47,084 bases of DNA, taken from positions 1-47,084 of IMG/VR virus record IMGVR_UViG_3300032883_000151; one strand, given 5' to 3'. The stretch comes from a virus. Lineage: Duplodnaviria > Caudoviricetes. The stretch's first letter is position 1. Each line of letters opens with the position of its first letter. The notes under the pieces were generated by a model. The model worked only from the letters and a program-made list of their open reading frames with translations. It did not search any database and had not been told where the DNA came from. A program made the translations under genes and the position numbers. Below are positions 41,067 to 42,159 of the stretch, in pieces.

Positions 41067-41238
41067 AGCGGGCAAAGGTTGCTGGTGGGTGGCTCGGATG
41101 ACCGGATCGCTCCGGCGTCCGCGTGCGTCGTCGGCTTGCGCCGACCGGCAACCCTTTCGGGCTCGCGGTTTTCCTCCGCCCGCCTGACATCCGTCTTGCG
41201 ACGGCCCCTGTTGGATAACCTACCTGCTTCGGCCCGCT
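41067..41238 (-). ncRNA. Y RNA-like (172 nt, multi-hairpin)
   Basis: 5' AGCGGGCCGAAG pairs with 3' CTTTGCCCGCT with a bulged C; GGTTATC motif; several GNRA hairpins. Confidence 0.75.
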
Positions 41239-41245
41239 TCGTTGT

Positions 41246-41413
41246 TCAGGAGATGTACCCGGTCGAGACGTGCTTCGGAAGCTCTCGGCCGGACTGGATG
41301 GCCAGCCGGTTCTCGCGACGCAAAGCGCGGTGCGCGGCTCGCTTGTGCATCCTCTTGATCTTCGACGGCGCATGGCGGCACTGCTTGCATCCGCACGAAC
41401 GGTACACGCCCAT
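41246..41413 (-). CDS. Small basic CxCxxC protein (55 aa)
   Basis: AGGAG RBS; MGVYRSCGCKQCRHAPSKIKRMHKR..TGYIS. Confidence 0.55.
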   Translation of the reverse strand: MGVYRSCGCKQCRHAPSKIKRMHKRAAHRALRRENRLAIQSGRELPKHVSTGYIS

Positions 41414-41435
41414 GTTCTGATCTCCTGGTGAAAAG

Positions 41436-41508
41436 TGGAGCTGAAGGGAGTCGAACCCTCTACCTCTTGCATGCCATGCAAGCGCTCTCCCAGATGAGCT
41501 ACAGCCCC
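41436..41508 (-). tRNA. tRNA-Ala(GGC)
   Basis: G3-U70, loop ATGGCAT. Confidence 0.95.
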
Positions 41509-41522
41509 GACACTTCGTCAGT

Positions 41523-41888
41523 CTACTTCTTCGCGTGCTCGTCGCACAGAGTCATTCTCCACCCGCCCCCGCGAACCGTTCCAGGCTTGCCGCATGTTTC
41601 GCACGTCTCATAGGCCAGCTTCTCGGCATCTCCGATCAGCTTGTCGATGACGGGGTCGGACGCGCTGACGTAGAACCGGAGCCCGCCGAACTTCTCCTTG
41701 TATTGGTCGACGACGACCTGACCAGGCTTGGCGCCAAGCTCTCGCAGGTGCGCCTCGATGGCGATGGAGAGATCCTTGACGATGTTCTCCCAGCCCTTGC
41801 CGACGCCGCCGCCGCACCGGAGGGAACCGGGCCCGAACAGGAGCGGACAGATGCGTCGTAGCTCCTCATCAAGCGTCGGAAGGCTCAT
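41523..41888 (-). CDS. Conserved phage hypothetical protein
   Basis: AGGAG RBS; GW..QYKEKFGGLRFY..TCETCGKPG..TLCDEH. Confidence 0.8.
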   Translation of the reverse strand: MSLPTLDEELRRICPLLFGPGSLRCGGGVGKGWENIVKDLSIAIEAHLRELGAKPGQVVVDQYKEKFGGLRFYVSASDPVIDKLIGDAEKLAYETCETCGKPGTVRGGGWRMTLCDEHAKK

Positions 41889-41910
41889 GTGACGTCTCCT
41901 AATAGTAGTC

Positions 41911-41978
41911 CGAACGGACAAGGGATGCGCGATGGCGGTTTTCCGTGCAAGGGTAACCATCACGCTTCGGCCCATTCG
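41911..41978 (-). ncRNA. Minimal Y RNA-like (68 nt)
   Basis: 5' CGAATGGGCCGAAG pairs with 3' CTTGTCCGTTCG; inner stem GCGTGATGG/CCATCGCGC; GGTTACC. Confidence 0.7.
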
Positions 41979-41981
41979 AAG

Positions 41982-42052
41982 TGGAGCGTAGCGGACTCGA
42001 ACCGCTGTTTTCGCGCTGCGAACGCGAAGTCCTCCCATTGGACGAACGCCCC
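41982..42052 (-). tRNA. tRNA-Ala(CGC)
   Basis: G3-U70, loop TTCGCAG. Confidence 0.9.
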
Positions 42053-42056
42053 GAAA

Positions 42057-42159
42057 GATCAGGCAAAACTCGGCGTGGTCATGCCAGTGTCGAAACCGGC
42101 AGCGACGGGCGGTGAGCCCGCTGCTTTCATCCCGATGAACCACGGCCTTCGGCCCGATC
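42057..42159 (-). ncRNA. Y RNA-like (103 nt)
   Basis: 5' GATCGGGCCGAAG pairs with 3' TTTTGCCTGATC with a bulged C; inner stem CGTGGT/ACCACG; T-loop-like TTCGA hairpin. Confidence 0.75.

Follow-up and report, generated by a model that had tools for sequence, protein, structure and literature searches.

The DNA analysed here (the window) comprises an entire virus record, 47,084 bases long. An array on the minus strand occupies its right part, with 32 tRNA genes interspersed among small ORFs, and the same strand carries ro60 (rsr). A subset of the window's ORFs was scanned for protein families. Among these scanned ORFs are RecT, an integrase, an SNF2 helicase with an intein, HNH nucleases, a PTH2-type hydrolase, a kinase-like P-loop protein and a macro-like protein, and no capsid or terminase family. 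The genes and sites that matter for what follows are:

154-1818, plus strand: ART-PolyVal domain protein
5582-8758, minus strand: SNF2 helicase with intein
31432-31758, minus strand: PTH2 gene
40070-40534, plus strand: polynucleotide-kinase-like P-loop gene
40985-41058, minus strand: tRNA-Ala(UGC), 8 nt 3' of the 172-nt Y RNA candidate
41246-41413, minus strand: basic ORF of 55 aa immediately 5' of the 172-nt copy, no Pfam family
41981-42052, minus strand: tRNA-Ala(CGC), separating the 103- and 68-nt copies
42161-42233, minus strand: tRNA-Trp(CCA), immediately 5' of the 103-nt copy
44043-44606, minus strand: HNH/endonuclease VII-like gene that separates ro60 from the RNA array (PHROGs phrog_2255, E 1e-13)
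44607-46316, minus strand: ro60/rsr, 569 aa, TROVE and vWA domains (Pfam PF05731, E 2.7e-48; PF25045, E 1.2e-62)
46391-46419, minus strand: weak sigma-70-like promoter candidate before ro60 (10 of 12 positions)
46518-46985, minus strand: macro-like gene

Judged by its alignments, 44607-46316 encodes a full, intact Ro60. The predicted protein matches human Ro60 (9nen, E 9e-119) and D. radiodurans Rsr (2nvo, E 1.6e-116), and it combines TROVE and vWA domains with a retained Y RNA-binding histidine, as expected of the Ro60/Rsr family. This histidine, H189, aligns with H187 of human Ro60 and is invariant across 17 aligned sequences; in mouse Ro60, H187 is reported to be required for Y3 binding (PMC11277228). 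The nearest named relatives are from Polyangiaceae/Sorangium (62-68% identity), which suggests, but does not show, that the host or the donor was myxobacterial. The promoter candidate is the sole site in a scan of 38000-47084, where 1.3 would be expected by chance. No terminator-like site was found downstream of any Y-RNA copy.

Seven copies of a Ro60-type helix

A Ro60-type helix occurs seven times in the window, always on the strand of ro60: in four stand-alone RNAs, two tRNA-shaped genes and the ro60 leader.

41067-41238, minus strand: stand-alone Y RNA candidate, 172 nt; four GNRA hairpins; z -1.82 (9 of 200 shuffles equally good or better)
41911-41978, minus strand: stand-alone mini Y RNA candidate, 68 nt; z -3.86; 46.9 bits, E 2e-8; upper stem beats 305 of 305 foreign partners
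42057-42159, minus strand: stand-alone Y RNA candidate, 103 nt; z -3.25; two interior hairpins; the sole copy that fills a tRNA-tRNA spacer
43277-43414, minus strand: tRNA-ordered Y RNA candidate 2; CCA encoded; z -1.66
43426-43553, minus strand: tRNA-ordered Y RNA candidate 1; acceptor stem of 7 bp, D and T arms, and within the anticodon arm a loop-capped Ro60-type helix; CCA not encoded; z -2.70
43962-44034, minus strand: fourth stand-alone mini Y RNA candidate, 73 nt; 38.9 bits, E 1.2e-6; z -3.02; no adjoining tRNA
46321-46354, minus strand: ro60 leader hairpin; permuted Ro60-type helix with its 3' strand at 46354-46348 and its 5' strand at 46338-46333; z -2.33

A preliminary description of this DNA had proposed three Y-RNA-like genes, of 172, 68 and 103 nt. 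All three are present on the minus strand, and four further copies had been overlooked. Their common 5' strand, GGGCCGAAG, has exactly three minus-strand occurrences in the window (41235, 41973 and 42155) and none on the plus strand. It pairs, as had been described, with 3' strands at 41076-41070, 41922-41916 and 42067-42061. The C of CCGA is left bulged in the predicted folds of all three RNAs, in the 172-nt copy in the centroid fold only. A bulged C marks the Ro60 site (PMC4030889).

A YUAY-type motif follows the upper stem. It reads GGTTAYC in five copies (GGTTATC in the 172-nt and GGTTACC in the 68-nt copy) and GGTTCATC in the 103-nt copy; the leader copy has none. The pattern GGGCCG-N5-16-GGTTAYC, which skips the 103-nt copy by one extra base, has five matches in the window, where 0.02 are expected and 0 of 100 shuffles reach that number.

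Other hallmarks of bacterial Y RNAs are also found. The Y motif is defined in PMC4201824 as GNCGAAN0-1G. Near their 5' ends the three copies described first have GCCGAAG, the fourth stand-alone copy has GCCGAAU, and the tRNA-ordered copies have GCCGCC and GCCGAU. The predicted folds close an end-to-end stem with the bulged C, and the same three copies lie 2.4, 2.6 and 3.4 kb from the ro60 stop (44607) on its strand, within the roughly 4 kb in which Y RNA genes are looked for. At gathering score the Rfam Y_RNA and YrlA models match none of the seven copies. Weak Rfam matches are RF01656 on the fourth stand-alone copy (E 0.067) and YrlA at 43223-43328 (E 0.32), which overlaps the second tRNA-shaped gene. 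The YrlA fold (T arm 5' of the D arm, closed acceptor) is not found in the three RNAs described first, which have no D/T pair. It is very probable that all six RNAs of the window are Ro60 ligands.

The interiors are much as the preliminary description had them: four GNRA hairpins in the 172-nt copy, a minimal stem in the 68-nt copy and a non-canonical T-loop-like hairpin in the 103-nt copy. The 172-nt copy is predicted to fold modestly better than its shuffles, with the scaffold fold at -75.2 and the minimum at -75.8 kcal/mol. The outer stems, which had been taken to be unrelated, do share sequence. The 68-nt and the fourth copy have a 14-nt 3' end in common, and 13 nt of the 172-nt copy recur in the first tRNA-shaped gene. 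A 10-mer is common to the 172- and 68-nt interiors.

tRNA-ordered Y RNA genes

Both tRNA-ordered genes escape ARAGORN and Rfam, including the Rfam tRNA model. Neither has the regular anticodon arm of a functional tRNA: in place of a 5-bp anticodon stem and a 7-nt loop each carries a 55-65-nt insert. Nor do they have the YrlA order, since the D arm precedes the T arm and the 7-bp acceptor stem is open. Within the insert the Ro60 helix is permuted, with the 3' strand first, then a short loop and then the 5' strand. The anticodon region forms a hairpin with an 8-nt loop in gene 1 and an irregular loop in gene 2. The module of gene 2 is 89% identical over 47 nt to a copy on a Polyangiaceae MAG contig (L243).

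Relatives are numerous. A search for a D arm, the permuted helix, GUUAYC, a T arm and a paired acceptor returned 92 distinct genes at 72 loci, 81 of them on the ro60 strand, none opposite and 11 without ro60 in range. An anticodon-like hairpin is present in 31 and an encoded CCA in 12; all seven acceptor pairs form in 82, in a set that was selected for a paired acceptor stem. Among 30 aligned copies, 17 of the 19 pairs show two-sided changes. Sorangium and Polyangium also have tRNA-ordered genes. Judged by the order of its parts, the tRNA-ordered form is a circular permutant of YrlA.

One could also argue that the two genes are a single ordinary YrlA read across their junction (43345-43494) with flanking remnants, or else intron-interrupted tRNAs. 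A YrlA-order reading with a 7-bp upper stem does exist, the weak Rfam YrlA match overlaps the second gene, and an anticodon-like hairpin is retained in the 31 relatives just mentioned. Yet the YrlA-order reading lies about 3 kcal/mol above the minimum-energy fold (-109.1 vs -112.1), which is the tRNA-ordered one. Each gene closes its own 7-bp acceptor stem, whereas the cross-reading has no paired acceptor stem, and tRNA-ordered copies without a tandem neighbour exist. The predicted folds thus disfavour the cross-reading. The intron form was rejected: the insert junctions vary between copies, and removal of the insert restores no regular anticodon arm in either window copy. We consider this alternative, in both its forms, very improbable.

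The tRNA-ordered genes would supply the unpermuted counterpart that YrlA has lacked. That a tandem pair of them can be read as a single YrlA is relevant to the published proposal of an origin of YrlA in dimeric tRNA transcripts, and it means that some database YrlA entries may be cross-readings.

Three observations on related genes may be added. At least four tRNA-ordered Y RNA candidates lie among tRNAs on the Polyangiaceae MAG contig (L243 / L515), behind a ro60 that is 68-70% identical to that of the window. A tRNA-shaped gene at L096:5757-5846 has kept GUUAUC in a 20-nt anticodon loop and has lost the Ro60 helix. In the published YrlA-II seed, the Chondromyces row (PMC4201824, supplementary text 2) has its D arm first and by eye resembles two ordinary tRNAs.

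The scaffold in other ro60 loci

The scaffold consists of the bulged-C lower helix, an upper stem, GUUAYC, an interior, a bulge and the 3' strand. Our collection (L001-L352 and the window) holds ro60 loci drawn from viral contigs, GTDB genomes and metagenomes, and pattern matches from viral contigs. In 82 sequences the simple 5' motif has 62 matches on the ro60 strand and 2 opposite; shuffles have 1-7. The full descriptor has 148 matches on the ro60 strand against 0 on the opposite strand in viral loci, 140 against 1 in GTDB loci and 37 against 0 in metagenome loci, with a further 29 in viral loci that have no ro60 in range (these counts take in a few cross-readings and related contigs). It recovers hundreds of putative Y RNAs that are absent from the results of the Rfam models.

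Once 8 of 330 descriptor rows had been removed as cross-readings or over-long, at least three copies were found in 52 of the 130 copy-bearing loci, and 42 of those 52 span at least 40 nt in size. Such multi-copy, size-varied arrays are common in relatives, and hence the repertoire of the window is typical of its family. The interiors range from about 10 to 140 nt and include short loops, lone T arms, permuted tRNAs of the YrlA type, whole tRNAs and long non-tRNA domains.

A covariance model trained on 48 mini copies, all of them from other phages, detects the 68- and 73-nt copies of the window (E 2e-8 and 1.2e-6). It misses the 103- and 172-nt copies, which have long interiors. Over the collected loci the model has 114 matches in 96 sources, all on the ro60 strand. 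Two-sided changes occur in 15 of 16 pairs, and 84.8% of cells are paired, against 61.6% after shuffling and 38-51% in all slid registers; the underlying alignment is fitted to the model and includes its training set. The lower helix is paired at 93% in 112 relatives.

A swap control, which is independent of the model, gives own upper stems a score of 6.82 and foreign ones 3.84. For the individual window copies, the foreign partners that score as well number 0 of 305 (68 nt), 68 of 305 (73 nt), 59 of 305 (103 nt) and 34 of 305 (172 nt). Judged singly, then, the 68-nt copy alone has an outstanding upper stem; those of the 73-, 103- and 172-nt copies are weak. In a 13.8-Mb Sorangium genome the model's sole two matches both adjoin ro60, and in two of four whole genomes the model overlooked known neighbouring copies.

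The collection also contains related arrangements. At L067:8000-8140 and L116:4348-4488 the Y RNA scaffold encloses a whole tRNA in normal order. At L022:4001-4034 (minus strand) and L026:4001-4034 (plus strand), with no ro60 within 4 kb, a permuted Ro60-type hairpin with GUUAUC stands in a conserved non-tRNA context just upstream of a tRNA.

Release from the precursor

The preliminary description placed the RNAs between tRNAs and had them released by tRNA processing. The placement holds for the 103-nt copy, the only one with a tRNA on both sides. The 68-nt copy adjoins a tRNA on its 5' side only, and downstream of it, a few bases away, lies the ribosome-binding site of a 121-aa ORF. The 172-nt copy has a tRNA on its 3' side only and the fourth copy on neither. 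The relatives are similar: of 318 copies, 245 adjoin no tRNA and 10 are flanked by tRNAs on both sides. tRNA processing may fix certain ends in the window, but as a general route of release it is not supported. Cleavage in the spacers, followed by trimming back to a Ro60-bound stem, would be the likelier rule.

Interiors and rRNA resemblance

The interiors may be different effector domains, as the preliminary description proposed. No relatives of the 103-nt interior were found in the collected loci or in pattern searches. For the 172-nt interior, matches among annotated phages are noise (E>=2), and a loose pattern returned 120 loci, of which the one with ro60 proved to be an ordinary mini Y RNA.

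An 11-nt stretch of the 103-nt interior (42104-42114, minus strand) matches 16S rRNA 1397-1407 exactly. We rejected rRNA mimicry for this interior. A match of 11 nt is reached by 36 of 1000 shuffles (p about 0.04, uncorrected), matches that long occur in about 30 of 198 interiors, the hairpin does not have the geometry of the decoding site, and none of 39 pattern matches had ro60. The match is probably due to chance. An 11-nt 16S match in the 172-nt interior was likewise set aside, being equalled by 118 of 1000 shuffles.

A different case is found elsewhere in the collection. In Y RNA candidates of 178-189 nt at L250:6901-7089, L326:4078-4255, L328:3510-3687 and L329:2888-3069 the interior starts with a copy of 23S rRNA, from around positions 1899-1927. 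Its identity with E. coli 23S is 94% across 35 nt (E 8e-6), with exact matches of 17-18 nt.

A hairpin in the ro60 leader

The seventh copy lies in front of ro60 itself. The hairpin ends 6 nt upstream of the Shine-Dalgarno-like AGAGGA, without covering it, and has neither the GUUAYC motif nor an upper stem. Using a descriptor that was composed after inspection of leaders, we found the hairpin in 20 of 154 other distinct ro60 leaders (viral 6/63, GTDB 10/74, metagenomic 4/17), against 2 of 457 leaders of other ORFs taken as controls and a mean of 0.29 in shuffles. It is missing from the remaining 134. Where ro60 is at least 55% identical, 9 of 22 leaders have it. The helix varies with compensation: counting the window, GGGC/GCCC occurs 13 times, GAGC/GCTC 4 times, GGGC/GCCT 3 times and GGAC/GTCC once.

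A survey of the Sorangium family covered 61 genomes and gave 12 ro60 matches in 11 of them, with a leader at 11 loci; 3 of these genomes are already in the set of 154 leaders. By eye, 7 of the 11 Sorangium/Polyangiaceae-family leaders have a clear hairpin, 2 a partial one and 2 none, and in several the 5' strand continues straight into GGAGG. The strict leader pattern, which is too narrow, finds 2 of the 61 genomes, both previously known.

The recurrence of the hairpin in ro60 leaders suggests autoregulation, and its simplest reading is a predicted operator for Ro60 itself. In ribosomal protein operons, the target of an RNA-binding protein is copied into the protein's own leader beside the Shine-Dalgarno sequence, a ligand mimicry. 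The ro60 leader is alike in having a copy of the putative target near the Shine-Dalgarno sequence; for ro60 the operator is a prediction. We found no published description of a ro60/Rsr leader operator in the literature searched (listings and abstracts).

Discussion

Several Y RNAs per genome, Y RNAs in phages and differences in their size have already been published. According to PMC4201824, each studied species has at least two Y RNAs, with a hairpin-type member and co-transcription with tRNA; YrlA is known in 22 phages, with three copies of 128-172 nt in CcrColossus. Since multiple, tRNA-linked and phage-borne Y RNAs are all on record, what was first proposed adds a new example of an arrangement already known. 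What is less ordinary about the locus is its tRNA-shaped members and its leader hairpin.

The stand-alone copies resemble Yrn1, Yrn2 and YrlB of D. radiodurans, as these are described in PMC4201824. There, too, a terminal stem contains both strands of the Ro60 helix, and a locus has two or more Y RNAs, of which one is a plain long hairpin, with Yrn2 co-transcribed with tRNA-Asp. The window differs in being viral, in having four stand-alone copies and in the multi-hairpin interiors of two of these, which match no known family; its RNA ends and its Ro60 binding are predicted.

Another close system is YrlA (RF02553). From PMC4201824 and 10.1101/312249, it shares with the window GNCGAA, a YUAY-type motif after the upper stem and a Ro60 module joined at a tRNA-like anticodon arm, and it is likewise encoded within 4 kb of ro60 on its strand. 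YrlA is circularly permuted, with the T arm before the D arm and an acceptor stem that 10.1101/312249 gives as closed, and it ends in the Ro stem, whereas the two tRNA-shaped genes of the window keep normal tRNA order, leave the acceptor stem open and cap the Ro helix with a loop. They resemble the RNase P-cut, CCA-tailed YrlA reported from M. smegmatis, but in one piece. We found no published description of this tRNA-ordered form in the literature searched. The b7a-tRNA (Burroughs and Aravind 2016, as cited in 10.1101/312249), a predicted RNA that is strongly tRNA-like and occasionally lies beside Rsr, may overlap with it and may be prior art.

Published phage cases give an indication of function. 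Two Y-like RNAs are bound by the Ro60 of Thermus phage phiLo, which also binds host PNPase and attenuates it (PMC12135203). The phiLo case is like the window in that a phage Ro60 goes with more than one Y-like RNA of different shape. It is unlike the window in that its Ro60 is very distant (E 2.6e-4) and its RNAs are two, none of them tRNA-ordered; the available part of PMC12135203 mentions no leader element. The Ro60-like gp130 of Bas63 is reported to counter Ppl defence (10.1101/2024.10.10.617714), in jumbo phages TROVE proteins are found together with RNA repair genes (PMC7824862), and YrlA has been proposed to act as a nuclease decoy (PMC7790460). These cases point towards a role in RNA quality control and counter-defence.

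The view that the locus encodes a repertoire of Ro60 adaptor RNAs gains from Y-type RNAs beside an intact ro60, a constant helix, exchangeable interiors and a covarying scaffold, once tRNA processing is dropped as the rule of release. We would go further and propose that Ro60 and the seven helix copies form a self-balancing set of Ro60 ribonucleoproteins, a model that we think probable but by no means assured. It builds on the gene, the seven copies, their common scaffold, the covariation in relatives and the recurrence of the leader hairpin, and it would entail that the RNAs are expressed, that they bind Ro60 by way of the bulged helix and have cargo-specific partners, and that the leader provides feedback. 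The four stand-alone and two tRNA-shaped RNAs would each dock on Ro60 via the same bulged helix. Unbound Ro60 would attach to the seventh copy, at the ribosome-binding site of its own gene, and so damp its own translation. The Y-RNA genes would be transcribed with the tRNA array and excised by host endonucleases; RNase P and 3' trimming would fix only some of the RNA ends, and bound Ro60 would shield the closed stem from further trimming. The two minimal copies could be gates or stabilisers of Ro60, like the hairpin-type Yrn2 and YrlB; the 103- and 172-nt interiors would, like the tRNA bodies, tether or decoy other factors. The purpose may be RNA quality control and counter-defence in infection, that is to protect, repair or clear damaged tRNA, since the array also has kinase-like P-loop, macro-like and PTH2 genes.

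Another reading gives the one handle three topologies. The free RNAs would carry exchangeable cargo, including a 172-nt four-GNRA domain of a new kind; the complete tRNA bodies would be cut by RNase P, tailed with CCA and possibly charged, or serve as decoys for anticodon nucleases; and the operator would repress Ro60 translation until titrated away by Y RNAs. We offer this tentatively, as possible rather than probable. It could also be that the RNAs are real Ro60 ligands whose interiors are drifting spacer, so that selection acts on the helix alone and the leader hairpin does no more than stabilise the 5' end of the mRNA. Such plain redundancy would fit 103- and 172-nt interiors for which no relatives were found, interior lengths that vary so widely among relatives, and a majority of ro60 leaders without the hairpin. 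It fits poorly with four GNRA-capped hairpins in the 172-nt interior, with other interiors on the same scaffold that are clearly selected (tRNA bodies and the 23S rRNA copy) and with a leader that retains a Ro60-type sequence with compensated changes, not just any stable stem. We regard redundancy as unlikely.

More improbable still is that the helices act only in cis, as landing pads on a long tRNA/ORF precursor that recruit Ro60, and with it host PNPase, for processing or protection, the 68- and 73-nt copies capping downstream mRNAs. Three of the four stand-alone copies are indeed not flanked by tRNAs on both sides, the 68-nt copy stops just short of a ribosome-binding site, the leader copy is in cis by position, and no copy is followed by a terminator-like site. 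But relatives have tandem arrays with spacers of 5-20 nt and no ORF (e.g., L077, L085 and L116), and the bacterial Y RNAs described in PMC4201824 are discrete RNAs cut from polycistronic precursors.

The locus would be useful beyond this virus. A single Ro60 comes here with six natural RNAs that would have the same handle and different cargo, which makes cargo-specific partners directly comparable and could bear on what bacterial and phage Y RNAs do beyond PNPase tethering. The leader operator, if true, would be the first feedback loop linking the level of Ro60 to the RNA pool.

Some smaller features of the array may be recorded here. A second small, very basic ORF lies in it (69 aa, 38339-38548, minus strand; no family found). 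The 134-nt spacer at 40606-40739 (minus strand), between two tRNA-Gly genes, has self-complementary ends and no Rfam match, and is possibly a further structured RNA. Macro-like and PTH2 genes are neighbours of ro60 in other phage loci too.
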